A stretch of DNA of 63,963 nucleotides, the filler included, from Licmophora abbreviata (Eukaryota), in assembly GCA_900291995.1 (NCBI GenBank). It is 7 parts of 7 records of this genome, joined end to end, with 100 filler letters (N's around TTAATTAATTAA, not from the genome) between each part and the next. Parts side by side here need not be neighbours in the genome. Positions count along the whole stretch, not along the records: positions 1 to 26,143 come from OLMU01003026.1; 6 more parts are not named here. One strand, given 5' to 3'. The notes under the pieces are model-generated. The model was not told the DNA's origin. It saw only the letters and a program-made list of their open reading frames with translations, and searched no databases. Below, piece by piece: positions 3,891-49,603 of this stretch (its first letter is position 1; the number at the start of each line of letters is the position of its first letter). The position numbers and the translations under genes were made by a program.

Positions 3891-4877
3891 TTACGGGGAG
3901 AACATCGTATTGATCATCGAAGCCGTGTAGTAACAAGATCGCCCGTCAGAACTGGTCCACATAGTACGTCCCGACTGTGCGTTGAAGTGTGGAGTATATC
4001 CATTTGGATCACTGGAATGGTCGGAGATGGCTTCGTCCAAAATGCTCGAATTCTCCTCGAGTTTCTTTCGCAGCTTGGCATTTTCAAGCTCTAGATTCGC
4101 AATACGCTCGTCGTTGGACGAAACCGCTGCGACTGGGGCGACCACACTAACGGGCGTCTCTGCGATCGTCGGCACGGCTTGGGAAACGACGGGCACTCCC
4201 GAGGCCTCACCAGCTTCCAGGATTCCCTCGCCCTTCAACTGTGCCACCCAGTTGTGAACGCGTTGCTCGGTCATTTCTTCCTGATTCACCGCATCCAAGA
4301 GCAAACCACAAAACAAGTCACCGCGAATCGCTTTGGAGTCCTCGTGTTCGTACCCGACCTGAGACGTATATCCAAGCATCTTACCTCCAAGATTCTCAAA
4401 TACATCGTGGAGCTCCCCAGACGCATCGGCATAGTTCTCAGCATACGACACGGAGTCCCCAAGACCAAAGACCGCAACCTTTTTCCCAGCAACGTCCAGG
4501 TCTGCCATTTCGCCATAATAGACCTCGTCCCATCCAGTTCCGGAGCGTTCGGTGTCTGCCCCTGTATTCCACGTAGGAGTTCCGACAACAAGAGCATCAT
4601 ACTTGCTAAACTCAGCAGCTACGCTACCCTGGATACCATCGATTTCAAAGGGTCCTTCGGCGTCGTCTCCAAATTCCGCGCAAATCAATTCGGCAGCTTC
4701 TTCCGTAGATCCCGTGGAGGTGCTGAAAAAGACGCCAATGCTCGCGTCCAGCGCCGTGGGAGAAGAAAGGCTCTGCGCTAATCGGGGATTCACACTGAAG
4801 CCATGAATACTCGTCAGCATCCAGAGCAGGACAGCAGCACTCGGATAGAATTGACGGCTTGTCATCGTCGTCGACAT
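3891..4877 (-). CDS. Plastid-targeted long-chain flavodoxin with a C-terminal extension
   Basis: FMN-binding motifs FFSTSTGSTEEAA, VGTPTWNTG and VAVFGLGDSVSYAENYADA. Signal peptide ends IHG|FSV (ASAFAP-like). Confidence 0.93.
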   Translation of the reverse strand: MSTTMTSRQFYPSAAVLLWMLTSIHGFSVNPRLAQSLSSPTALDASIGVFFSTSTGSTEEAAELICAEFGDDAEGPFEIDGIQGSVAAEFSKYDALVVGTPTWNTGADTERSGTGWDEVYYGEMADLDVAGKKVAVFGLGDSVSYAENYADASGELHDVFENLGGKMLGYTSQVGYEHEDSKAIRGDLFCGLLLDAVNQEEMTEQRVHNWVAQLKGEGILEAGEASGVPVVSQAVPTIAETPVSVVAPVAAVSSNDERIANLELENAKLRKKLEENSSILDEAISDHSSDPNGYTPHFNAQSGRTMWTSSDGRSCYYTASMINTMFSP

Positions 4878-5021
4878 GGTCGTCAGATTGATTCAATTCT
4901 TTTGCGTTCTTTGCAACTTTGCCAGCAGATGTTGTGTCTTTCGCGGTTTTTGTGGTTGGCCTGCAAGCTGATTCCATGTCGCAGTGTGACGTATCCAACA
5001 GTAAAAGATACGTGCGGCTGC

Positions 5022-5251: not shown

Positions 5252-8200
5252 ATGGCATCGAAACGCGCTTTGACCGGGGTGAGTGATGATGACTCCCCAA
5301 AACGCCTCCGCGGCGGCGGTCCATTCGGAGACGACAACTTTGGTCAAGACCCGACCGAACTCTTCGATGAAGACGTAGACGACGAAGAACAGCTCCTTCC
5401 TCCCGAAGAAATCGACGTTGTCCCTGCAAACGACGATGCAGTCGTCGATATTTCCCAAGAAATGAAGGCCCGTTGGTCGCGCCCTTCTGTCAAGTCCTAC
5501 ACGAACGAGAACGATCTCAATCTTCAGTGGCTTGACATTGACATGATTGGAGGCAAGCCTCTCCAAACGAACCCCAATCCCAAGAAATCAGTGGTGGGGA
5601 GCAAAGAAGGACAAGTTCCCATAATTCGTGTTTATGGCGTCAACGAGGAGGGGAACTCAGTTGCCGTCTACATTCACGGCTTTACGCCTTACGGATACTT
5701 TGCTCTACCTGCGGGATACGAGTTCGACGAGACGAATGAGAATTTAGAGGAGATCCGTAACACCCTCAACGAACGCATCCAGTCGGGCATGCGTCGTTCT
5801 GATGGAAACGCAGTCTTTTGTCTTGGCGTTCAATACATGAAGGACCATCGCAGCATCATGGGATACGACACACCGCACACCAAATTCTTCAAGGTCCTCC
5901 TGGCCATGCCTACCATGGTACCGACCCTCAAGCGCATCATGGAAGAAGGAATCGAGCTTCCAGGAGTACGACCCGCCAGTACTGAAAATTCCGTTGTGTA
6001 TGATGGCAACAACAATGCTGTCTTCCAGCCTTTTGAGTGCAACGTCCCATTTGTCTTGCGATTTATGATTGATCGCGACATTTCTGGAGCTGGATGGCTG
6101 ACGCTTCCCAAAGAAACCTACCGCGTCCGCACCGATGATTCCGATAAGCAGACGCACTGTCAGGTATTTGAAACTGTTGACCGAAGACGGATAAAAACTA
6201 ATGTCGCTGATTGAGTGACCACTTCTAACCATCCTCCCGTTTCTGTTTCTGTACCACCAGCTGGAAGTTGATGTTACGTACAATGAAATCTTACCCCGCG
6301 AATCTGCAGGCGAATGGAACAAAATTGCCCCGCTTCGCGTGCTCTCCTTCGACATTGAGTGTCAGGGACGCAAAGGCCACTTTCCAGAAGCTGAGAAGGA
6401 TCCCGTCATTCAGATTTCAAATGTTGTTAGCGTGTACGGGCAAAGCAAGACGCCTATTGTGCAGGTACGTCGGACGTAATCGGAAACGAACCGCAGTCGA
6501 CTTTAGATGCTGAACCTCACCACTTTTTTGTGTCGACTTGAAGAATGTCTTTACGCTGAAGGGGTGTCTTCCGATTGTCGGAGCACAGATTATTTCCAGC
6601 GAGGAAGAAGCCGACATGCTAATGAAATGGAGGCTGTTCCTAGAGACATGCGACCCAGACATTATTACTGGGTACAATGTTCAGGTATGTTAGTCTGTCT
6701 GGTCAGACACGTCAAATGCAGTCAATTGTTGCTCACGGCTGTGATAACTTGCGGTCGTCGCCGTCGCATGTCTCTCTCTCTTGCTACAGAATTTCGATAT
6801 CCCCTATCTCCTCGACCGAGCCGACGCTCTGGGCAAAAAGCATTCCACTCTCAAGGGATTCCGCCAATGGGGACGCGTCAAGAATTCTCCGGCAAAGATG
6901 AGGGAAACAATGTTTCAGTCGTCGGCGTACGGTCGGCGCGCCAACGTTGAAACAACCATCGAGGGTCGTGTCATTTTCGACATGCTTCCATACATGCAGC
7001 GCAACCACAAACTGAGCTCGTACACGCTGAACAGTGTATGTGCCGAGTTCTTGGGCCAGCAGAAGGAAGATGTCCACCACTCGATCATCTCGGACCTTCA
7101 GAACGGAAGCGATGAGGATCGTCATCGTCTTGCTGTGTACTGCTTGAAAGATGGGTTGCTGCCGCAACGTCTCATGGACAAGCTCAGCGTTCTTGTGAAC
7201 TACATCGAGATGGCACGTGTAACAGGCGTCCCCGTGTCTTTCCTCATTACGCGTGGCCAGCAGATTAAAGTGTTCTCTATGATTCTGCGCAAGTGTCGCG
7301 ACGAGAAACTCTTGGTACCCACGCTGAAGAAGAGTGGGCCCGGCGCTTCGGAGGTGGGCTACGAAGGAGCGACCGTCCTGGACCCGATCAAAAAGTACTA
7401 CGAGGTGCCGATCGCGACGCTGGATTTTGCGTCACTGTATCCTTCCATCATGCAGGCGTACAACTTGTGCTACTCTACATTGGTTAATCCAAAGGATGTC
7501 TCGAAGCTAGATCCCGACCAATACAAGAAGAGCGAGAACGGGAGCGTATTTGTCCACTCTCATGTGAAGAAGGGAATCTTGCCCACAATTCTCGCGGTAG
7601 GTAGCACTCCTCGATTCATTTGACGACTCGGGGAGCGTTTCATTCACTTACTTGTGTATCTCTCCTTGTGTCTAACAGGAATTATTGGCCGCCCGTAAGC
7701 GAGCGAAGAAGGATATGAAGAATGCTCCCACTGAATTCGAACGCACCGTTCAGAATGGCCGACAGCTCGCCCTGAAGGTATCCGCCAACTCTGTTTACGG
7801 ATTCACAGGAGCCGCCGTGGGGCAGCTACCTTGTCTTCCAATTGCCTCTGCTGTGACATCCTATGGTCGTTATTTGTTGGAACGAACCAAGGAGTTCGTC
7901 GAGGACAAGTTCACGGTTGCGCACGGCTACAAACACGACGCCCAAGTAGTCTACGGAGACACAGACTCTGTAATGGTAAAGTTTGGAACTTCCACCGTTG
8001 AAGAGAGTTTTCCATTGGCGATTGAAGCCGCGGAAAAGTGTTCCGCGATCTTTCCGGACCCAATTCTGCTTGAGTTCGAGAAGGTTTACTTCCCATACTT
8101 GTTGATGTACGTCGTTACTTGCTACCGAGGGAGTGTGCTTCCGATAGTTGGACAAATGTCGACTAACCGCTGTCTGTTTGCCGAAATACTCATTCCTCAG

Positions 8201-9128
8201 GAACAAGAAGCGCTACGCTGGTCTCATGTGGACCAACACAGACAAGTACGACTACATGGACACGAAAGGTCTAGAGACAGTTCGTCGGGACAACTGCGCG
8301 TTAGTCCGTGATGTTATCCAAACCTCGCTCGACAAGATCCTCATGGACCAGAACGTTCCTGGAGCGATCGACTACGTCAAGTTACAAATTGCAGATCTCC
8401 TTCAGAACAAGATGGATATATCTCGCTTGGTCATCACAAAGAGTTTAAACAAAGGAGCCGAGTATGCACTCGGGCTCGGCGGGAAAAAGGAGGATTACAA
8501 GATTAAACAAGCACACGTCGAGCTTGCTGCAAGAATGAAGAAGCGCGATGCAGGATCTGCTCCCCAGATGGGAGATCGCGTTCCATACGTGATTATCACT
8601 GCAGCGAAGAACGCAGCGACCTACGAAAAGGCAGAGGACCCCATTTTCGTCCTCGAGAACAACATCCCCATTGACTGCAAGTGGTACCTTACGAACCAAC
8701 TTTCCAAACCTCTCACTCGCATCTTCGAGCCGATCATCGAGGATGTCGAGAAGTCGTTGCTGCAGGGGGATCATACTCGTAAGATCTTCATTCCCACTCC
8801 GTCGGCGAGGAAAGGCAGCCTCACGATGTTCGCTGTTAAAAAGGCGACTTGCCTTGGATGCAAGGCACCGGTAGACTCCAAACAAGGCTACTTGTGCAAG
8901 CACTGCGCTCCTCGGGAAGCCGAGATCTATCTCGACAAGCTCGGCGTCCTTCGCGAGGCGGAGTTACGCTATGCCAACTTGTGGGCAGCCGCGCAGCGCA
9001 TTCACGGGACTGTCCACTCGGACATTATGTGCACTGGTGACGGTTGCGCTTGTCAGTTCTACAGGAGAAAGAAGGTACAGGCAGACATTCGATTGGCACA
9101 AGAGGTGCTGAACAAATTTGGTCGCTAA
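5252..9128 (+). CDS. POLD1: DNA polymerase delta catalytic subunit (6 exons)
   Basis: Exonuclease motifs SFDIEC and GYNVQNFDIPY; polymerase motifs [23 protein letters not shown] and YGDTDS; C-terminal CysA. Introns at about 6164-6260, 6465-6543, 6685-6789, 7597-7678 and 8107-8200. Confidence 0.97.
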
Positions 9129-9367
9129 ATACTACAACGCTAAGTTTCGGACCCGTGGCCGTGAATAAAATAGGAGAGTACTTGGAGATATCGCAATCGC
9201 AATGTCCACTGTTTACATATATCACATGGCGAAGATAACACCTTGGAGTTGTCGGACGAGGCGTGTTGGAGATATCAGATATCGATTTGGCGTGGAGAAG
9301 ACCGCCCTTTCGAATTCTCGTGCGAGGAATCTAACTCAGACCAGCAGACATTATCCGCAGGAAGATC

Positions 9368-10847
9368 TTAGACCTCTTCGATCTGTCCATCGGGGACGAC
9401 CGGATGCTCAAACGACGGAAAGGAAGGTTCGGAATGACCGATAGGAGTGCTCTCGAGGTGGAGCAGAGCAGCGGCAACCGTCTCGCGTAAGAACTCGGGG
9501 GAAGGGTTTAGCGCGTCGTCGACTTCCTGCTCACCCTGGGACCGTGCCATATCGATGGACGATGTATTACGCGGTAAATTCTTACAATCGCGACAGATAC
9601 ACCCGTCTTCATTACAACTCACGCCGTTGGCCAGACAAACGCAGTACTTCTTGAGGCAGCTGGGGGCAGAATGAATACAGCTGTGAGCAACAAAGATTCC
9701 CAGACGCCCAATTTCGAAGGCACGCATGATGCAGCACGACAGATACTCACTGGCTCTTCTTGCACGCACATCCATCCTCCGCGCTCTTTAAACGATGCTG
9801 AAAAGCATCGGGACGTCGTTTGAGAATCAGACGAACAGCTCGTGTGCGCGCTCCGCCTGTGCCTGAGTTCTTAGAGTTGTTGAGGCATTTCTTGCACGAG
9901 CATTTCTTGCTGCACAGGGCACCGCTCTGGAAGCAATCGCAGTACAATTTGATACATCGATTTCGGCCACATCTACAAGTCCTGTCAGGCCAAGTGGGGC
10001 CAGCTGGGAAGATAGTCTTCCCGTGCTTTGCGTTCGACGACAGGCGAATCCGGCTCTTGGTCCGCACATTCGAGCTTTGAGCTGTTTCCGAAGGAAGTTT
10101 CTTCGCCCCCACGTTCGAAGACAGATCAACCAGTGGTGGTCGGATGATGAGAGGCGCCGTCGTCACCACTGCAGGACGATGGTGTTGATGGAAATGGGTC
10201 ATGTCGAGTTTTTGACGTGGCGCGACTACCGCTGGGGTGGTTGCACGCACGACAAACGACGGAACGCTCTTGTGGCTTGTGTTTGTTCCGTGAACCGCTT
10301 CCTGTATCAGAGTCGAGTCGCTAAAGCCCATTCGAAAGGTGAAGATACCGTCACCGGCGCTAAACGGGTTAGTCTGTGAGTGACCACTGGTGGTGGACGG
10401 CGTGAAGAAGTTGTTGATGCCAGAAAAAGCGTCGCTGCTGTGGATGGACCCGGACGGTGGATACGGCGTCTCCATGAGCGGCTGCGTCATAAGTCTTCCA
10501 GGATTGCTGATCTGCATTTGAAGCAGTGGTGGGACGCTAGCATCAGGTGGCATCGGCTTGTTCAAGTCGACGCCAAGCGCAAGGAGCGTCGCATCCTTGG
10601 TAGACTGACCGGTCGGAACAGGATTGGTGTATATCGGCTGTGGGGTGAAGCTCGGTTGGGCACCGAAAACGTGCGTGACGGTGCTTGTAGCGGGAACGAG
10701 CTTGTTGCTGTCGACGGACGGATTCGACGTTTGCACAGCCGAGGCTATGGGAGTTCCCTTCTTTAGCATCGTTAGCTGTGACGGCGAGCCCAGGTTCATA
10801 TCACTGCTACGAGCAATCGGCGTGGGACGCAAGGTCATCATGGTCAT
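9368..10847 (-). CDS. Tesmin/TSO1/LIN54-like tandem CXC (CRC) domain protein; the 5' end probably extends upstream to about 11.1 kb
   Basis: CRCGRNRCIKLYCDCF...CSCKKCLN, linker RPDAF, then CACKKS(H)CLKKYCVC...CICRDCKN after splicing intron 9660-9750. The frame stays open upstream of 10847 (YDKENTP) back to an acceptor near 10950. Confidence 0.88.
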
Positions 10848-11442
10848 GCATCGTGGACTGCCGATCGCACGCGCGTTTGCGCCATCGGTCGGCGTGTTCT
10901 CCTTGTCGTATGAGGCGTTATGATAGGTAGAATACGATGGCTTTAGGATCTGTGAAGTCTGTGAGCTGGGTTCGAGCTTGTCGCAGTTCGTGGGCCGCTT
11001 CTGCGATGAATCATGGTTCTGACCGCTGTTGCGAGGAGTAATCGCGACTCTCTCGCTCCGATGCGGAAATGCGACTTCCCCCTTTTCTGCGTAGAGAGTC
11101 CATGTCTTGTTCCCTTTCGTATTGTCATGTTCGAAAGCTCCTTCATATCCGCCAGCGTCGACTTGGAGACAGTCCTGATGTCTCGTCTCACTAAGTGGTC
11201 TGTGATGCTGAAATGAGAAAATGATGAGAACGATTTGAAAAGGGTCATTACTCCTTAGGTGTGACGGGTCACACTCGGCTAGTGTTGTTCATCTTAAGAA
11301 TGCCGCATGAGCGCTGGAAAAGGTATCCATTTCTCAGTAGAATACAGTATCGAGTTGCGCATGTAGGACGAGTATTGTGTGTACGTAGCTTGGCGTGAGC
11401 TCGAGAGCTCCACAAAGATCGACACGCGTTGGTTGCCACTCA

Positions 11443-12773: not shown

Positions 12774-15700
12774 TTATCGTAGATAGGAGAACGTGTCGCG
12801 GATCGAGGACGAGAGCTCCGGGCAACGAAGACAATTTACCTCCTTCTCCACAGGGTGCTCTATAAAGATCTGGCCACTGCCTTCTTTTCTCGCGCGCTGC
12901 TCCAAATCCTGTTTATCTCTGTCGGCGGCGTCCACTCGCTTTGCCTGTGCAGCATTGATAGTCAAAGCCGTTGATGTATAGCTGTCCATCATAGTCCGAG
13001 CCAGATCAAGGCGACCAACTTGGGCCACGTATCTAATTGTGCCGTTGACCTCTCGACAGAACTCAGAGTCGATGCAATTTATTTTCAGCGAGGCCACGAG
13101 ACTCCGCAATTCTTCCTCACTTCCAGGTTTTATCCTGTTTCGTTGTCTTTTGGGCTTCCTTTTCTTTTTCTTTTGTTTGCCGTGCCTGTTGTATTTCGAA
13201 TGATGTTTGTTAACGCCCTGGTCTCCCGTGATTGTGAAAGAACTTTGAGTGCCGACAGATATGACGCTCGAAACGGTGGTAGCACTTCCCATACTGGATC
13301 CACTCATATTACTCAAGACGCTTGAATTTGATGCAGCTGAGGCCACAGAAAACAGACTACCAGTGTCATCTGCATGGGTATCCATGCCTTCACCAAACGG
13401 CATATCAGCCTCGCGAATGGCTGCCTTTCGAACCTCTAGCACCTCATTGTATCGCTCACTTGCTTCCATAAACGACTCTGTTCGACTTTCAAGATCTACC
13501 ACGGATGAACGAACAAAAGATACACATGAATCGATGCACTTCTTGACGAGGTCTTGCCGAGAATGCATTGACGATATTCGGTGGGCCTCGCTCCACATCT
13601 TGGCCTTCACCAGCATGTCGACAGCTCCTACGGTGTCCTCACAGTAGTCGAGGAGAATTCGGGCTGCATCAGCAAGAGACCGGCGGCGATCGGCTATACC
13701 TCCCCTTTGCTCTGACGCTAATTCTTCCGCTATCGAATATGCCAAGCTCTGCGTCTCATCATCAGTGCATCCTTCACCGTTCTTGCCTATGACGGCGCTG
13801 AAGAAGTATCTCCAGTCACCACAAGCTCTTGCCGCCCGTTTCGCACCGGCATAATCAGGAGGCTTAGCCGATAGAAAAACTAGAAGTGCAGTCTCTGACT
13901 CTTGTTTCTGCAGCAACTGCTGGCCAAGAGAGACAGTAATTAATCTGTGATTACTGTCGTCGCCCTCAAATAAATGGAGACCGAGGAGATGCAAGTTCAT
14001 ATTCTGGATCAACTTCATGCAATGGTCAAAGTCGTTTCCGTATGGTATCGTGCCGTCGGGGAGGGCCATATCATCCAGTTGTTCGCTGCTCGCTCTCGAT
14101 TGCACCAGATTCTTCAACGCGGCCTCGTATCTTTTGAGGCGCATGTCGACTTCGTATTTCCCGTAGTGCGATGGAAGTGTCCTCAGCCGCTTCAGGTATG
14201 GAAGATAAACTTTTGGGTCCATCTGTGAGTTTCGAGCCACTGCTCTGGCCACATCGTAGTCGTACATCCCCAAGGCCGTGTCAAATAATATCTTGTAGTC
14301 AGCCAGAAATGCCAAGTAATGAATGGAAGATTGCGCGCGTTCGCCGAATAGTGGCGGCTTCTTGCTCGTCGGTGGGTGGGAGCCGAGTGCGTTCTTTTTA
14401 ATCATACTGAGAGCGTCCTCGAGACGTGGCGGGTTCTCTTTGGCGAACGTCGACAAGATGGGAAGTAGGAAGTGACCTTCAGATACAGGGTTTCCAGAAG
14501 ATGTAATTTTCATCTCCTCCGCGAGCAGCAGAATATTTCTAATCTTCCTACACACTTCATTGACCTTTGTTGACGGATCGAAATCTGACGACTCTTTCGC
14601 TTCATTGCCCATTTGACCAAACCAGCTGGGGACTCGAAACCTTGTTTGAGTAACGTCGACGTTTTGCAGGCAAGAAATGAACAGATTGAGGTGGTCGACG
14701 ATCGTCACCCTCTCTAAAAACTCGTTTACGCCGTTCTCCAGCAGAAATGCGGTAGGGTCCAGATCGACAATCAAATTTAGATCGACTTTTTGTCGTCTCA
14801 TCATGACAAATGCCTCTCCGTACTCTCTACAGCGAATCTTCGACATGACATACGGTAACACCAGAGCCCGCGGATAGATGCCTTCAATGTTTCCCCGAGG
14901 CATCTGGAGAACAGCGATCGGTTTCATCGGAAGTATCGCCACAAGTCGGGCACCTCTTTCGACGCAACGAGGCTCGTACCCCTCCAACAGATGATTCTCG
15001 TCGGAGCCCATCAATGGATCAAAGGTCTTTAGTTCTTCCAACGGTAGAAATCGGCACTGCGGTCGGGCGTCCGACGTCACGTAGCAAAGGAATCGGTGCG
15101 CCAATGAGAGTATAAAAGACGAAGAAGAATCAGAAAGCAACCGATCGTGACAGTACAGTCGACCTCGATTAGATCTCCCAATCACAAGTCGCAGGTTTGG
15201 AGCATCGCCATCATCATCGATCCCAGTCGATGCATCACCATGAAGCGCCGAAATCCAAGGGCATGGTTCAAGCAGCGGTTCGGCGACGGATGGAACGAGG
15301 CGACTTTCCCCCGATCCATAATACTCATACTCTAGGAGAATGCCGTCATCCAGCTCAATAAGCACTCCCTCTTTGGCGTCAGACCAGTGGATCATACGCA
15401 ATATTCTTCCGTCAACAGAGGTTGACTTGGTGATAGAGGCTACTGGGCCTGCCTCCTGGCCCCATTGCATAGAAATTTCAACAAGATGTTCGCATCGCTC
15501 GTTTACGAGCGCTGGTGCTACTGCGACTAGCTCGATGCTCAGGTCAGACGTTCGCAAAACTCGAATTTGCCGCAGGGAGGAGACGGAAATGCCTTGCGTC
15601 GCGGTCCATCGAGCAGCCCCCACGATGCAAGGCGACTGTTCACTCTCAGTAGAACTCTCACGCCCAACCAGTATCAAAGAACCGTCAGAAAGGTGAACCA

Positions 15701-16991
15701 ATGCGGTCAGTACACAACCGTCACTGGGAATGAACGAGACTTCCTGAATAGGCATCGGCAATTCCGTAGAGAATAAATACATGGGCGGGGGGATCATTGT
15801 TTTGTCGAACGGAGTCATGTTGAGATTGCAGCCATCAATTGATACGGATATGCATGATGGTGAGTCGTTCATTGGAATGAAAACCGAGCTTGGATCCCAA
15901 CAGAATTCATACTCCCTCCAACAGGCCGCTCTGGACGAAGCGCTTCCTAAGGCGACACATAGGACGTATGCCTTCTCGTCATCGAATCGGACACACGAGA
16001 TCTGTTCATTCATGTATCGGAGCTCTTGTTTCAGGTACCAGTGATAGTTACTTCGATGCCACAATTGTACTTTATCGTTGTGACCTGGTTCCCGAAGAGA
16101 GACAGCTAGCAAGTCGGATTCAACATTCCATGCCAATCCAAGCACGGTAGCCTGAATAGGAGTCGTCTCGTCACTGGCGTCGGGTCGCAAGGGAAATTCA
16201 CGATGTCGGAGTCCATTAGGCTCAAAGAAGACAACCTGTTGAGTTCGTTTCCCCTTTCGCTGGACAGCTGTCACTAGATTTGAGCACCCCCCACCTGCCC
16301 ATGCGATCTCACTCTGCAAATTTGGAACGGCCTTGCCGCTCCCGTCTTCACTTCGTCCGATAGAGTTCAGCGCAAGGTCGTCTCTCGAATATGTTCTTAT
16401 TCGTCTCACCCCATCTCCCTTGTCTAAACTGCTGATGGCACAGAAGGTCCCGTCGGGTCGCCAGGCCATGGAAACCTCAGCGGAATCGGCCTCTCCCGAA
16501 GAGACATGCGGCTCGATGGGAGACTCGGAAAGGACTTCCAATTGCCCATTCATGCCCAACAAAACCGTACTCAGACTTCCAGTCATATCGGCCACGACGG
16601 TAACAAGGAACAAAACTTCGCGATCGGGACTCCACTTTCCAGCCTCCAGTCCATGATCGAACTCGCCCACCAGTTCACATGCGCCGGTACTGGACGACAC
16701 CGTCACAATGGCTCCACTTTTCGATAAACAGACAATATTGGGATCGACGAACGTCGCATCGAACCAATCGCCCTTTGTGGTAGACGTTTGATTTAGATCT
16801 ACGCTCCAGTGTACGTCGCCATCTACATTGATTCGTTGCAAGATGCCGTCGATTGTAAGGAGGATGATGCAATCGTCGGATCCATCTATACTCGGAACAC
16901 GACAAAGGTCGCAAATTACAGATTGTTCCCCTGAGCGCACTTCGAACTCAGTCGAACGGTGCCTTTCAGCTAGCAACACTAAATTTCTCAT
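12774..16991 (-). CDS. ELP1: Elongator complex protein 1 (IKI3/IKBKAP), intronless
   Basis: Conserved start MRNL, then WSPD, FFEPNGLRH, NYHWYLKQ, RCVERGARLV, LQMPRGNIEGIYPR, ALGMYD, SQMDPKVYLP and a basic C-terminal region with PGSEEE. Confidence 0.96.
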   Translation of the reverse strand: MRNLVLLAERHRSTEFEVRSGEQSVICDLCRVPSIDGSDDCIILLTIDGILQRINVDGDVHWSVDLNQTSTTKGDWFDATFVDPNIVCLSKSGAIVTVSSSTGACELVGEFDHGLEAGKWSPDREVLFLVTVVADMTGSLSTVLLGMNGQLEVLSESPIEPHVSSGEADSAEVSMAWRPDGTFCAISSLDKGDGVRRIRTYSRDDLALNSIGRSEDGSGKAVPNLQSEIAWAGGGCSNLVTAVQRKGKRTQQVVFFEPNGLRHREFPLRPDASDETTPIQATVLGLAWNVESDLLAVSLREPGHNDKVQLWHRSNYHWYLKQELRYMNEQISCVRFDDEKAYVLCVALGSASSRAACWREYEFCWDPSSVFIPMNDSPSCISVSIDGCNLNMTPFDKTMIPPPMYLFSTELPMPIQEVSFIPSDGCVLTALVHLSDGSLILVGRESSTESEQSPCIVGAARWTATQGISVSSLRQIRVLRTSDLSIELVAVAPALVNERCEHLVEISMQWGQEAGPVASITKSTSVDGRILRMIHWSDAKEGVLIELDDGILLEYEYYGSGESRLVPSVAEPLLEPCPWISALHGDASTGIDDDGDAPNLRLVIGRSNRGRLYCHDRLLSDSSSSFILSLAHRFLCYVTSDARPQCRFLPLEELKTFDPLMGSDENHLLEGYEPRCVERGARLVAILPMKPIAVLQMPRGNIEGIYPRALVLPYVMSKIRCREYGEAFVMMRRQKVDLNLIVDLDPTAFLLENGVNEFLERVTIVDHLNLFISCLQNVDVTQTRFRVPSWFGQMGNEAKESSDFDPSTKVNEVCRKIRNILLLAEEMKITSSGNPVSEGHFLLPILSTFAKENPPRLEDALSMIKKNALGSHPPTSKKPPLFGERAQSSIHYLAFLADYKILFDTALGMYDYDVARAVARNSQMDPKVYLPYLKRLRTLPSHYGKYEVDMRLKRYEAALKNLVQSRASSEQLDDMALPDGTIPYGNDFDHCMKLIQNMNLHLLGLHLFEGDDSNHRLITVSLGQQLLQKQESETALLVFLSAKPPDYAGAKRAARACGDWRYFFSAVIGKNGEGCTDDETQSLAYSIAEELASEQRGGIADRRRSLADAARILLDYCEDTVGAVDMLVKAKMWSEAHRISSMHSRQDLVKKCIDSCVSFVRSSVVDLESRTESFMEASERYNEVLEVRKAAIREADMPFGEGMDTHADDTGSLFSVASAASNSSVLSNMSGSSMGSATTVSSVISVGTQSSFTITGDQGVNKHHSKYNRHGKQKKKKRKPKRQRNRIKPGSEEELRSLVASLKINCIDSEFCREVNGTIRYVAQVGRLDLARTMMDSYTSTALTINAAQAKRVDAADRDKQDLEQRARKEGSGQIFIEHPVEKEVNCLRCPELSSSIRDTFSYLR

Positions 16992-17223
16992 GGGTGTAGG
17001 CAGCTGTTCGCACCGAGCTATACTCTGCACCTCTCCAGCGCCGCCATTTTGTGTTTGCAAACCCGACGTGACGACGCGTGATGAGCGGCGGCACCAAATT
17101 CTGTGGCTTGAACATCTACTGTCTGTCAGCCGGCCGGGTTGAGAGATGATGTTCAATTTCATTCGATTGCAAAGGGCGACAGTCGGTACGAACAAGTCTG
17201 GCCCTTGTCTACTATCATTACTA

Positions 17224-18772
17224 TTACTTGAGCTGGGAGGCAACGGTCGCATGGTAAGGCACCGCCGCAATGTCACCGATGGCCGCCATGGCCGGATTGG
17301 TTTTGAGCATGGCAGTCACGGCGGAGCCCACAGCCGCTTCCGAAATGCCATCATACGCCGCCGACAGTTCCTTGAAACTAAAAGTACCATTCTCCAAAAC
17401 CGACGTGGTCATGGACTCGGCAAGTGTCTTGCTACCACTTTCCAAGGCAAACAGAGCTTCCGCCTTGGCAAGTGCTTTGGCCCGCTTCACTATATCCGCA
17501 GACGGCGTTGATGATAGAGCCGAAACAAGGGAATCCGCAATGCCCGAGGCGCCGACCGAGCTCGCCCCTCCGTAAACACCTACTAGACCCGTCGATGCAA
17601 ATGCTGAGACATCCTCGCCACTGGACAAGTCGAAACAGTACTTGAGCACATTCAACATGGGCGATCCGGCTGGTCCCTCAAAGGCAAGCGCCACATGCGC
17701 ATATCCCGCAGACGGAGCAGCCAAGCGAGATTCCCCGCCCAAATATAAGGCCGTAGCAGATGCGTCCGACGAGCCCGGCGTCGCTTCGTCCATGCTTTCT
17801 TCGACGGCCTTGACAAATGCGGCGTGATCTTCCACACCGGTAGCAGCCAAGACCGCGCCATTGATTCCGTAAGCAGAGCTACGGAACGACTTGATAGCAT
17901 CCATGGAAGCATCTGCACAGTAGAATGGACGGCCCATAGCAGACTGAGGTCCGTACGCAGCAGCAAAGAGGTGCTCTGTCAATACAGCCTGTGGTGACAA
18001 ATTGCACGATTGCGAACTGTTAGAGACTATAGCTTAGACAACAAAGCGAAGGGGATGATATTCCAGCAAGTCTTACCTGTGCACTAGTGCTCGCCTCGTT
18101 GGCTTCAACAGCGGCGAAGCTCTTGGCATCCCGAACATCCCACTTTTCAAAGGAACAGTCCAATGCAAGCAAGGGCAAGAGACGCGCGGCCTTTTCCGGA
18201 GAGCAGGTGAACCCAACTGTGGCACCCTTGCGCCCCGCAGTCGCAAAAGGAACGGCGCCGTCATCCTCCAAATTACGAACGATTAGCGCAGAAGACAAAC
18301 CCGAGGCCGACTTGAAGGCCAGGTTCTTGTTGATCAGCGCGGCGCCCCATTCGGATACGGCCTCGTCGGCCGATCCAGCCTTGGGGAAGGTCAGAGACAC
18401 AGTCGTCGTCGAGGCAGCATTTTCCGATACCACTGTCAGCCCACTGGCAAGAGCCGTTACAGAGGCAGCGCTAGCCTTGGCGGGTGCAGGCGAAAGAGGT
18501 GGGATGCTGAAACAGGAGAGAGGTGGGAGAATGTGAGACTAGATTCAACACGACGAGCTACGACAGAGCGCTAAAAGCCACGCCGTATCCTCCGAGCGTC
18601 CGTCGGCGTTTGTGCGGATCGAATGAAGTGGCAAGCTATTCTCAGGAGTTGTCTCTCACCCTGGATATTCTTCGTCTATTGTCAGGAGAGAGGAAAGCCC
18701 TCGCTTTGACGCAGCTGCAGATACCTGCCGAGGGACGACCCCGAGGGCACGGCGCACCGAAAGGCTTGCCAT
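17224..18772 (-). CDS. Cytochrome bc1 core subunit 2 / mitochondrial processing peptidase alpha-like (M16 family, lacking HXXEH)
   Basis: Mitochondrial presequence MASLSVRRAL; motifs AGSADE, NLAFKS, YLGGESR, AHVALAFEG and PAMAAIGD. Introns at about 18507-18659 and 17989-18076. Confidence 0.85.
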
Positions 18773-45579: not shown

Positions 45580-48500
45580 TCAGGGCGCGTCGATCGCGCC
45601 AAAGTCGATGTCGACCTCGAACTCGTCTTCGGCATCATCGTCGATGTCAATGACCTCCATCGTAGTTTTTCGCCGTGACACGGCCTTCGCTCTGGCAGTG
45701 CGTTTAGCGGATGGCTTTCTGTCTTGCTGGTCTGTTCTCGGGCGCTTGNNNNNNNNNNNNNNNNNNNNNNNNNNNNNNNNNNNNNNNNNNNNTTAATTAA
45801 TTAANNNNNNNNNNNNNNNNNNNNNNNNNNNNNNNNNNNNNNNNNNNNCTGGTCTGTTCTCGGGCGCTTGGCAGGAAGACGATCCAGGTATTTCTGCAGA
45901 CCTTCGAGCTCAACGAATGCTTTGATGTTCTTCACAAGCCTCTCGCCGTATTCTTTTACAACGTTCTCGCCGAGGACTCCTAGCGCTTCAAGCTCATCCA
46001 TGGAAGTAGGGACTTGAGAGGCGATTGACGACATGGCATCGTTCTTCATGATATTCCAATCTGCGTACAAAAATGACAGAGACTGAACGGGTTAGCTAGG
46101 GACAAACACCGAATCAACACATTACGCGAAAGGCCACTCACAGTAGACGTTCTTTCCAGCCATTCTCTCTTCGTCGGCCCACATGGTGACTAGTTTCTTG
46201 ATACGCTTGACAAGCTGTGAGCTCTGCTTCTTTGGTAGAACGTGTTGGTGAGACGCAGCCGACGACTTGCTTCCGACCTTGCGGGACGAATCGTCGTCGC
46301 TCCAGGACTCATCTTCCGACTCGTCGGAAAGGCAGAGAACGCCCTTTTTCGCTTTGATACTTTTCATGCCTGGTTTCTTCGTTCCGGTCTTCGGAGACTT
46401 GCCCTTGGCAGTTTTTTTCGTGTTCGCGGCATTCTCTTTGTTCTTCGATGCAGATCCCTTCTTCGGGAAGTCGACGAAGAAACGACGCTGGCCGTTCTGT
46501 ACAGCCTCTGCGAATTCGCCAGGACGGAGGTAGTCTGAATTGAAGCCACCTTGATTCACCTCGGATGTTTCTTCCAGTATCTTCTCGTACACCATCGCGT
46601 GAACTATCCGGTCAAGGTCTACTTTCGAGGACTTGGAGCCGGCACCGTATCCTCGGAGCCTCGCTGTCTGGATGAATTTAGTTGCTGCCTTTGTCTTGCT
46701 TCCACGATACAGTTCTGTAAGTTGCATCATAGTGACTCCCCGACCGTTTCGCTGTGCTGATATCTCCGCCAGCAGGTTGAGGATGGCGACCGCAGTAGTC
46801 GTCAAATCACGCCGGTCGGACTCTCGTCCTGCTCTACAGTTGTCGCATGTCCTTCCACACTTCGAAGGATCGAAGTTTTCGCCAAAGAACTGAAGCTGCA
46901 TGGTTCGACGGCATAGAAACTCGTTCTCGCAGTAGCGCAGACACGTGTAGAGTTGGTCGACCTTTCGGCGGGTACTCTGGCTACGAGGATTGTTCGACGA
47001 CTTCATGATCATGCCTTCTAATATCCGTTTGTCTTTGTAGGCGTAGTAAAGGATGCAATCGCTTGGCTCGCCATCTCGTCCAGCCCTGCCGGATTCTTGG
47101 TAGTAGTGTGTGATCGACTTTGGCATGGAGTAGTGTATCACGTATCGAACATCGGGCTTGTCAATGCCCATTCTAGAAGCGACGAGACAATTGGTGAGCA
47201 ACGACAAGGAAAGCCGCAACTTCTCAGTCAGTGAGGTCTGCGCACTTACCCGAAAGCAATCGTCGCACAAAGCACGCTGATGACACCTGTGCTCCAAGCA
47301 TGGTGCCGACGAGCTCGTTCGTCGGGATCCAGCTCCGCATGATAGTACGACACTTTGACATCTCGACAACCCTTCGCCACCAGCTTCTCTTGCAGCTTTC
47401 CGGACACGGTTTCACAGTCTTTTCGACTCAAACAGTAGATGACACCGGAGTCCTGCGAGCGCTCGACAACATATTCCGCGATTTCGTCCGTACTCTTGGA
47501 GCCTTTCTTTCGAACTTCGTAGCGCAAATTGGGGCGGTTGAAGGAAGAGCGGTAGCGGTATTCATTGCGCATGCCGAGCGCTCGAATGGCATCGTTCACG
47601 ACCTTTTCGTTCGCCGTAGCAGTCAATGCCATGAGCGGAACCCTGGGGTAGTCGCGTCGAAGTGACCCAAGCTGGTTGTAGTCTGGTCTGAAGTCATGAC
47701 CCCAGTCGCTTAGACAGTGCGCTTCGTCCACCACGAATCGACTGATAAGATTCTTACTGTGCAACTTGCTAAGAACACCGCGGATCATGCCGGATCGACT
47801 CAGCTTTTCTGGAGTAATATAGAACAGCTTGACGCCACTGTGACCGCTCGTCGTGTTGAGACGTTGGATTATCTGTCGTTGCTCTGTCTCGTAGTCTTGT
47901 GCCGAATTGAGGAACACTGACTCCACACCAAGTTTCGTGAGAGACTGCACTTGATCTTGGATCAACGAAAGCAAGGGAGAAATCACAACGGAGAGACCTG
48001 GGCTACACCACGCCGGTAGTTGATAGCAAAGCGACTTTCCGCCCCCCGTGGGCATCAACACGAAGACATCGCGTCCTTGGATGGCATGTTCGATGACATC
48101 TCGCTGTCCAGGACGGAACGAGTGATGACCAAACTTGCGTTTGTTTTCGGTGACAATGTCCTTCATCTGCCCTGGGTCGTAATCCGCATCACCAATGAAT
48201 CCTTCCTCCGACGCGTGTAGATTGCCCGAAACGCCATCGGCCCATTCAAAGAAATCGCACTGCTCACCTTCGGGCATGGGACACTTGTAGAACTGTCGTC
48301 CCATATTGACAGCTGTGCTAGCTGTGAGGACACGACAAGGCTGACTATGGCCAGGACAGAGCGGGACGTTATCGCCTCCAGTGGGAAGAGCTGCATACGA
48401 AGCGCTTACAAACGGAGTCTCGCTGGCAAAGGAACCAGAATTTCCAGCCACGAACGATGAGGTCGAATATGCTGTTTCATATCCATGATCCCCCGATGAG

Positions 48501-49603
48501 GCTGACGTGCTGTAAGCAAAGCTGTGACCGTCATTATTCCCGAACGGCGCAGCAGGACCTACAGGGTTTGACCCAGAAGAGTAGCGAGATGCGACTCCAG
48601 AACTGCTCGCATACCGGCTGGATCCAGAGAGACTCGATACATTCGAGCCATTCGAGTATCTCGATGGAGCTCCTCCGAGCGAGATGCTAGTACTACCACT
48701 GGATGCGCTGCAGTAGCGCGGGGCTGCAGCATCGTCGAAGGAAATGATCGGCGATTGTCCCGTGACGAGACTGTTCCGAGGAGCACTCTGGCCTTGTGCC
48801 CAGTCACTGCCATAGTCAAACGAAGTTTCCTGTTGCTGCTCACGTCGCGCTACTAGTTGATCGACATCGAGCTCTGCAAACAGGGAGTCGTCGACGTCGT
48901 CGCTCGTATCCATGGGAGCGAGTGGAGCCGGTTCTTGCGCCGTCGAAAATGTACCTACGCCACTGTTCTGCGTCGTCAGGCTCCGCAGCCGTTCTCGTTC
49001 TTCAGACTGCGCTGCGCGTCGTCCAAACACTGCGTCTGCACAAGCTGGAGAGTTGAAAGCAGTAGGACGATGCTCCCCATACACCGCATTGTGCCGATTC
49101 CGAATGCGACGGGTCGGTGAGAGAAAAGGCGGGCCCTCGATCGCATGCTCGGGTTCCTTCGGGAGAGGTGGTCGTTGTATCGAATTCGAGGATGAGACAG
49201 ATTCAAGGTTGGGTCTAGCAGGGAGATCGTTCTGGTGCTCACTGTATAGCCGCACGCCTTCTTCGGCCGACAGTTCGACACGTTCCAGCGATGTGGCGTA
49301 CAGTCGACCGTCGCGTCGGCTGGTGTCCCCATCTCGCACAAAGGTGTACCCGCCGACACGTCGTCTCTCCTCCCAGCGGCGCTCTGCAAAGCTCGTTCCA
49401 TCTGGCTGCACCGCATACTCAAATCCAGCGAGGAGTCCCTGCTTGGGCTTGCCCTCACTCCGAAGCGACTGCAGGAACNNNNNNNNNNNNNNNNNNNNNN
49501 NNNNNNNNNNNNNNNNNNNNNNTTAATTAATTAANNNNNNNNNNNNNNNNNNNNNNNNNNNNNNNNNNNNNNNNNNNNGAGGTAGATAGCTCGTCGATGA
49601 CAT
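45580..49603 (-). CDS. RecQ (BLM/RECQ4A-like) helicase with an N-terminal GRF zinc finger, RQC and HRDC domains; spans two gaps
   Basis: [64 protein letters not shown] cysteines and HRDC-like VPTSMDEL...YGERLV. The start at 49603, beyond the gap, is tentative. Confidence 0.93.
45749..45848. other. Assembly gap with linker; flanks overlap by 22 nt
   Basis: 45727-45748 is identical to 45849-45870. Confidence 0.93.
49479..49578. other. Assembly gap with artificial linker
   Basis: 100-nt N run containing TTAATTAATTAA. Confidence 0.97.

Follow-up and report, generated by a model that had tools for sequence, protein, structure and literature searches.

The CysB module of POLD1, DNA polymerase delta's catalytic subunit, is altered throughout the diatom-type clade. 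We propose, with a probability of roughly 0.55, that the four-cysteine site that holds [4Fe-4S] in human and yeast has become a site of one histidine and three cysteines in diatoms, a structural metal site common to the whole clade that probably binds zinc, does not receive [4Fe-4S] any more and remains a docking place for the B subunit. On the same footing, diatoms, and possibly their closest relatives too, would replicate their genomes with a Pol delta free of an Fe-S cluster. The CysB change is a clade-wide, diatom-type trait and not a peculiarity of the Licmophora genome; in this the result departs from an earlier sequence-only reading of the same DNA, which had treated the change as a feature of a single sequence. 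The four CysB cysteines are called invariant in excerpts of papers on Pol delta (PMC6613617, PMC8495945). We found no published description of a CysB change in diatoms in the full-text literature, in which subscription journals are mostly uncovered, and this is no proof of absence.

The POLD1 gene and its last exon

Positions are given along the window, the whole 63,963-nt stretch of Licmophora abbreviata DNA (GCA_900291995.1) that was analysed. POLD1 lies within the part taken from OLMU01003026.1 (1 to 26,143). Its exon structure was obtained by tblastn with the full-length homologues P0003, P0005 and P0012, together with scoring of GT/AG junctions against the homologues.

5252..9128, + strand, POLD1 gene, DNA polymerase delta catalytic subunit, six exons
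about 5252-6163, + strand, exon 1, donor uncertain (6163, 6175 or 6202)
6261-6464, + strand, exon 2
6544-6684, + strand, exon 3
6790-7596, + strand, exon 4
7679-8106, + strand, exon 5
8201..9128, + strand, exon 6 (last), with the end of the palm, the thumb and the C-terminal domain (CTD)
8850..8906, + strand, CysA zinc module with four cysteines (C217, C220, C232 and C235), intact

An open frame at 8148..9128 (+ strand) closes with the stop codon TAA at 9126-9128, and the residues of the last exon are numbered 1-308, counted from 8202. Pfam recognised DNA_pol_B_exo1, POL3_N, DNA_pol_B and zf-C4pol in the exon frames (E down to 3.8e-50), the zf-C4pol match in the last-exon frame scoring 43.7 bits against a cut-off of 28.9, and the catalytic motifs of both the exonuclease and the polymerase were seen (15 protein letters not spelled out here, and YGDTDS). 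The best solved relatives of the last exon by HMMER were human POLD1 (6s1m_A, E 3.9e-86) and yeast Pol3 (7kc0_A, 6e-69), to which the last 308 residues are 46-48% identical, and the matches to Pol alpha (E about 1e-12) and to Pol zeta (E about 1e-10) were far weaker. Foldseek gave an order of relatives that agrees with HMMER, with Pol delta ahead of alpha, epsilon and zeta. As one part of the explanation proposed above, the gene is probably the usual POLD1 with which a diatom replicates its DNA, complete in its catalytic equipment.

CysA had been called intact in the sequence-only reading, and its four cysteines do align and fall within the zf-C4pol match. Their codons start at 8850, 8859, 8895 and 8904, and all four residues are invariant in 112/112 rows of alignment A1 (57 diatom-type rows and 55 others).

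Substitutions in the CysB module of Licmophora POLD1

CysB residues were matched through the HMMER alignment to human POLD1 (6s1m_A) and yeast Pol3 (7kc0_A), in which the human numbering agrees with the residues named in excerpts of PMC6613617 and PMC7048817.

about 8979-9074, + strand, CysB motif as quoted by the sequence-only reading, inside 8965-9128
8991-8993, + strand, Ala264 in place of CysB cysteine 1 (human C1058), cysteine lost
9000-9002, + strand, Ile267 in place of CysB cysteine 2 (human C1061), cysteine lost
9003-9005, + strand, His268, a new histidine at human Q1062, proposed new ligand
9015..9017, + strand, His272, equivalent to the p50-interface residue H1066 of human POLD1, kept (role from excerpts of PMC7048817 and PMC6613617)
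9030-9032, + strand, Cys277, CysB cysteine 3 (human C1071), kept
9045-9047, + strand, Cys282, CysB cysteine 4 (human C1076), kept, with Ala283 next
9051-9053, + strand, Cys284, a new cysteine two places past cysteine 4, at human I1078

The sequence, the open frame and the alignment to human POLD1 bear out the earlier claim that CysB cysteines 1 and 2 are replaced by Ala and Ile, and the rest of that description, with a new cysteine (in GCAC) and two nearby histidines, holds in full as well. Only cysteines 3 and 4 of the four-cysteine arrangement (C-x2-C ... C-x4-C) are present, and the new putative ligands are spaced H-x8-C-x4-C-x-C. Beside Cys284, residue 285 is a one-residue insertion whose column is a gap in 55/55 other rows of A1.

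The codons at the two altered positions, GCG for Ala264 and ATT for Ile267, each lie at least two bases away from TGY, in line with the earlier argument that multi-base changes make sequencing error unlikely. Canonical cysteine codons in reads had been named as the observation that would overturn the claim; instead, a 259-base marine metagenome contig (X4, record 8) that spans 8891-9149, including the CysB codons, agrees with the window, from which it differs at two letters, the one listed being a synonymous A>G at 9068. Among the sequencing-run contigs compared, which gave partial cover, it is the only one to span these codons. Assembly error is excluded because 66/66 diatom-type homologues among the matches listed show the same CysB pattern. 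Sequencing error and a pseudogene were likewise considered and are ruled out by the open frame, the domains, the homologues and the metagenome contig.

Distribution of the altered motif and its origin

Homologues were drawn from the best 120 matches among longer proteins and the best 150 among representatives at 50% identity. When the window CTD was mapped by phmmer onto all 270 matches, 224 aligned and 46 were without an alignment. Sixty-six diatom-type sequences among the matches listed, with 71-89% identity to the window, span the whole motif, and every one of them (66/66) has Ile or Val at cysteine 2, carries both the new His and the new Cys, and keeps cysteines 3 and 4. Position 1 is Ala in 63/66 and Cys in 3/66 (P0053, P0056 and P0066), so that P0053, P0056 (Cyclostephanos tholiformis) and P0066 have four cysteines plus the histidine at CysB.

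All 141 other eukaryotic POLD1 sequences that span the motif among the matches listed keep four CysB cysteines, 133/141 with Cys in all four aligned columns and 8/141 in which the first or the second pair is shifted (P0151, P0156, P0170, P0176, P0197, P0198, P0218 and P0257, four cysteines each). A histidine after cysteine 2 occurs in 0/141 of these. Another 14 rows among the matches listed cover the motif partly or not at all, and three rows cut off inside it (two window-type rows and P0123) agree as far as they reach; P0123, a 482-residue protein with A-V-H at three columns, was left uncounted, as its alignment ends inside the motif. In the non-diatom sequences P0151, P0170, P0176, P0218 and P0156, the first cysteine pair either lies 1-3 residues away from its usual place or reads C-x-C in place of C-x2-C, which suggests, at least from sequence, that CysB spacing in divergent eukaryotic POLD1 is looser than the textbook motif.

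Named members of the diatom-type group are Odontella, three species of Thalassiosira, Cyclotella, Cyclostephanos, Fragilariopsis, Nitzschia and Epithemia, spanning polar centric and raphid pennate diatoms; one JGI gene model in the group we take to be Pseudo-nitzschia. Every match named as a diatom in the best 120 has the variant except P0067, whose gene model stops before the motif, and no diatom-named sequence occurs among the canonical matches listed, down to E 3e-101. The nearest named outgroups among the matches listed, the ochrophytes Ectocarpus, Tribonema, Chrysoparadoxa, Pelagomonas and Undaria, are all canonical. The same motif and tail are seen in proteins that were derived from transcriptomes and are marked as complete, such as P0036, P0043, P0045, P0048 and P0062. 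The public models P0067 (Cyclotella cf. meneghiniana), P0068, P0069 and P0123 break off or turn non-homologous inside the CysB motif, and in these a last exon or an intron was probably predicted wrongly, so that they do not represent genuine variants.

The matches examined were the best 120 and the best 150, and it is this scope that leaves some room for a reading in which the altered gene is a specialised or decaying paralogue, or an artefact of assembly or annotation, and a canonical POLD1 replicates the genome instead. We consider this very improbable: the frame is open with all domains and catalytic motifs present, the independent metagenome contig concurs, the complete transcriptome proteins carry the same motif and tail, and the diatom-named matches have the variant (the broken P0067 excepted) with none canonical among the matches listed.

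A tree was computed from 280 last-exon columns, with the CysB columns removed, for 71 rows (the window, 56 diatom-type and 14 outgroup rows); 10 near-duplicate or fragmentary diatom-type rows and three truncated rows were omitted. All variant rows formed one clade (SH-aLRT 100) on a long stem of length 0.41, which is consistent with a single remodelling of CysB on the stem branch of that clade. Since the ligand change and the loss of the C-terminal Trp described below share this one branch, they count as a single evolutionary co-occurrence, not 66. The base of the clade lacks resolution in the tree, and the order of events is therefore not readable. P0053 and P0056 were sisters nested among Ala-bearing rows and P0066 was placed elsewhere, on a long branch, so at least two changes occurred at position 1 within the clade. 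The Cys in these three sequences is either a reversion or a retention. If Cys did come back at position 1 in at least two lineages, extra thiolate ligands could still be useful.

Conservation, fold and B-subunit interface

Invariant columns make up 19/101 of the CTD in the 57 diatom-type rows of A1, with neighbouring columns varying, and they include His268, Cys277, Gly279, Cys282 and Cys284 together with the four CysA cysteines. Position 264 is Ala in 54/57 and Cys in 3/57 diatom-type rows, compared with Cys in 55/55 of the others; position 267 is Ile or Val in 57/57, compared with Cys in 55/55. His occupies position 268 in 57/57 diatom-type rows, whereas the other rows have Gln (50/55) and never His, and position 284 is Cys in 57/57 as opposed to Ile, Val, Phe or Leu. 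Cys277 is invariant in all 112 rows (112/112). A chance origin of this pattern is ruled out by the clade-wide mapping and the column invariance.

One His and one Cys gained, and strictly conserved beside the two kept cysteines, point to a new four-ligand metal site. We propose that His268, which would sit just past the old cysteine 2 at the end of a long helix, acts together with three cysteines, the old cysteines 3 and 4 and the new one two residues on. The rewired metal site put forward in the sequence-only reading is, as far as sequence can tell, well supported by the invariance of His268, Cys277, Cys282 and Cys284 (57/57 rows, and 66/66 among the matches listed).

Between cysteines 3 and 4 the loop has turned glycine-rich, reading T-G-D-G in diatom-type rows where the 55 others have [ST]-[NS]-[RSK]-D. 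The equivalents of human R1074 and D1075 are therefore replaced, by Asp and Gly; in human POLD1 these residues touch the thumb and exonuclease domains (excerpts of PMC7048817). The same source names E1048, R1060 and H1066 as p50-interface residues of human POLD1, and their counterparts E254, R266 and H272 are kept in 55/57, 47/57 and 51/57 diatom-type rows, respectively. An F-Y and an R-K-K stretch past the CysB site are also retained, as in human and yeast. The AlphaFold2 model of the last exon (mean pLDDT 83.9, only moderate at 67-75 in the CysB loop) shows two long CTD helices, and its top Foldseek matches were human Pol delta (9ekb_A, 6tny_A) and yeast Pol3 (7kc0_A), over about 307 columns. 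The CysB module probably still folds around a metal and docks POLD2.

Human Pol delta assembles without its cluster and is only partly destabilised (excerpts of PMC6613617 and PMC7048817), and with Asp and Gly at the equivalents of R1074 and D1075 the surroundings of the module have been rebuilt in diatoms. Both points would fit a module that binds no metal at all, in which the His and Cys would be conserved for the sake of packing, of a disulfide, or of contact with the B subunit, the thumb or the exonuclease domain. Such a module is improbable, however, as His and Cys were gained exactly where two ligands were lost, which is what a metal site predicts, and the four ligands are invariant in 66/66 sequences among the matches listed despite identity falling to 71-77%. 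A stable disulfide is moreover generally unlikely in the nucleus.

Loss of the C-terminal tryptophan

9114..9128, + strand, C-terminal tail K-F-G-R and stop TAA, without a terminal Trp or Phe, the signal that the cytosolic Fe-S (CIA) targeting complex recognises in Pol3 and Rev3 (from the sequence and the comparison of tails)

Canonical POLD1 among the matches listed ends in Trp in 104/141 and Phe in 12/141 sequences (116/141 together), often as L/I/F-D/E/S-W. The corresponding figures for diatom-type POLD1 among the matches listed are 0/66 and 1/66 (P0062). Most diatom-type sequences end in K-F-G-R, and the tail has the length of the ochrophyte tail ending in K-F-S-W, 21 residues in most. In the transcriptome-derived P0062 the C-terminus is longer by five residues, with an extra C-H-P-C, and closes with the Phe.

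According to excerpts of Marquez et al. (PMC10245660), the CIA targeting complex is recruited by a C-terminal tripeptide, [LIM]-[DES]-[WF], Pol3 binds this complex through its last ten residues in a Trp-dependent manner, Pol3 with a truncated tail fails to complement, and in other families the signal has been lost jointly with the Fe-S ligands. Diatom POLD1 fits this joint loss by its sequence features; the lineage that remodelled CysB also dropped the Trp that recruits the complex to yeast Pol3. Loss of the signal alone is no proof of cluster loss, because 25/141 canonical four-cysteine POLD1 sequences among the matches listed also lack a terminal Trp or Phe, although some of these tails may be gene-model errors.

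Mutants provide a further comparison. Any single Cys-to-Ala change in CysB of human POLD1 strongly lowers iron incorporation (excerpts of PMC6613617), and the yeast C1074S change is the temperature-sensitive pol3-13, which is synthetic lethal with CIA mutants (PMC8495945), among them alleles of dre2, tah18 and met18. Given these human and yeast mutants, with two ligands and the targeting signal missing, the ancestral cluster is unlikely in diatoms. Metal binding, a single zinc ion as the metal instead of a CIA-delivered [4Fe-4S] cluster, and CIA independence of diatom Pol delta are what we infer from the above, and with zinc in place of the delivered cluster, assembly of the enzyme would be independent of Fe-S supply.

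We also weighed a site that still binds an Fe-S cluster through His268, Cys277, Cys282 and Cys284, either [4Fe-4S] with one His ligand or [2Fe-2S], whose redox potential and lability would be unlike those of a Cys4 cluster and which would be brought in independently of a C-terminal signal on POLD1, for instance by a partner subunit or an adaptor bearing one. His-ligated [4Fe-4S] clusters exist, and NEET (CDGSH) proteins hold [2Fe-2S] with one His and three Cys, two of the latter in a C-x-C pair. The diatom set of three Cys and one His resembles the NEET ligands in its C-x-C pair, four invariant potential ligands remain, position 1 appears to have become Cys again in at least two lineages, and the 25/141 canonical sequences just mentioned dispense with the terminal aromatic residue. 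Most CIA clients, too, carry no such signal, and adaptors exist (excerpts of Marquez et al., PMC10245660). A cluster is nonetheless possible rather than likely: two of the four ligands are gone where loss of a single one strongly cuts iron in human POLD1, the targeting Trp is absent in 66/66 diatom-type sequences among the matches listed, the glycine-rich T-G-D-G loop may suit a tighter site, and Pfam shows no CDGSH-type domain. An iron-free Pol delta, as the sequence-only reading had suggested, gains independent support from the loss of the CIA-targeting Trp/Phe, which that reading had not noticed, and is held in check by the possible His/Cys3 cluster.

Comparison with known metal sites

The CTDs of human POLD1 and yeast Pol3 (6s1m, 6tny, 9ekb and 7kc0) have a CysA zinc module and a CysB [4Fe-4S] module. 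Diatom POLD1 shares with them the gene family, domain order, predicted CTD fold, CysA and CysB cysteines 3 and 4, and with human POLD1 the residues matching the p50 interface. Unlike human POLD1, it has Ala and Ile/Val for cysteines 1 and 2, a gained His and Cys with a one-residue insertion, Asp and Gly at R1074 and D1075, and a terminal Arg in place of Trp.

Ligands and the terminal aromatic residue were likewise lost together in fungal amidotransferases and RNA polymerase subunits that are homologous to CIA clients but free of Fe-S, as described in excerpts of Marquez et al. (PMC10245660). Those cases are other protein families, and Pol3/POLD1 is shown there as a conserved, signal-bearing [4Fe-4S] client. 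Diatom POLD1, unlike these Fe-S-free homologues, gained replacement ligands, and a metal site therefore probably persists.

Closer at hand are Pol alpha and Pol epsilon, whose second metal sites keep four cysteines. These CTD sites hold zinc in crystal structures, so that a sister module can fold on zinc, and the zinc-bound site would be a functional analogue of diatom CysB, should that be of the zinc type. Zinc in the alpha and epsilon sites may be non-native, whereas the diatom ligand set has been altered and fixed by evolution. Replacement of [4Fe-4S] by zinc in such polymerase CTD sites is described as not unusual (excerpts of PMC4142720).

The NEET proteins differ from diatom CysB in fold, ligand order and spacing, and the likeness is one of ligands only; a CDGSH domain is absent among the Pfam matches of the last-exon protein.

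Neighbouring genes and iron sparing

3891-4892, - strand, flavodoxin gene (Pfam Flavodoxin_1, E 2.5e-19)
9368-11288, - strand, tesmin/TSO1-like CXC domain protein, downstream of POLD1 (PF03638, E 2.3e-09)
12774-17315, - strand, ELP1
46122-49522, - strand, RecQ-type helicase (DEAD, Helicase_C, RecQ_Zn_bind and RQC, with an N-terminal GRF zinc finger)

The flavodoxin gene and POLD1 are arranged head to head, and about 360 bases separate the former from the POLD1 start codon. At its N-terminus the flavodoxin protein resembles a presequence, and its C-terminus is extended by about 115 residues, part of which looks like a coiled coil. Flavodoxin is a classic iron-sparing protein, and its position next to an altered Fe-S site is probably a coincidence. 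A second Cys-rich stretch of the tesmin/TSO1-like CXC kind lies in the frame 9368-9787. PTPA, a TCP-1 chaperonin subunit and a Josephin-UBX protein are encoded elsewhere in the window. The Pfam scan of 27 other large frames of the window showed no other replication polymerase and no POLD2.

The sequence-only reading had offered an iron-sparing adaptation as a possible cause of the CysB change. This is unsupported, as the trait is ancestral and clade-wide, and a low-iron adaptation of Licmophora is rejected as stated on the same ground. Iron sparing is a weak reading also because the trait is common to Epithemia, Cyclostephanos and Cyclotella, which we take to be freshwater genera, and because Pol delta is a low-copy protein, for which the iron saved per cell would be very small. 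Replication independent of Fe-S supply or of oxidative cluster loss would be a more plausible benefit, and a neutral, compensated change behind the remodelling of CysB is possible.

Significance

The role of the [4Fe-4S] cluster of replicative polymerases is debated, having been seen as structural glue for the B subunit, as a redox switch and as a sensor of oxidative stress. With its altered CysB and lost Trp, a eukaryotic clade that is ecologically dominant amounts to a natural experiment on that role. If diatom Pol delta is cluster-free, it would be the first natural Pol delta of this kind, and if it holds zinc, the CysB cluster and redox switching through it would be dispensable for the lagging-strand polymerase of a eukaryote, a role that swaps of diatom and yeast CTDs would make directly testable. 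Should the site hold a His-ligated cluster instead, this would be a kind of cluster new to polymerases, and its redox properties would differ. For the diatoms themselves, the finding matters to the coupling of cell division with iron and oxidative stress, and if the zinc reading holds, their DNA replication would be uncoupled from cytosolic Fe-S supply and from oxidative loss of the cluster.
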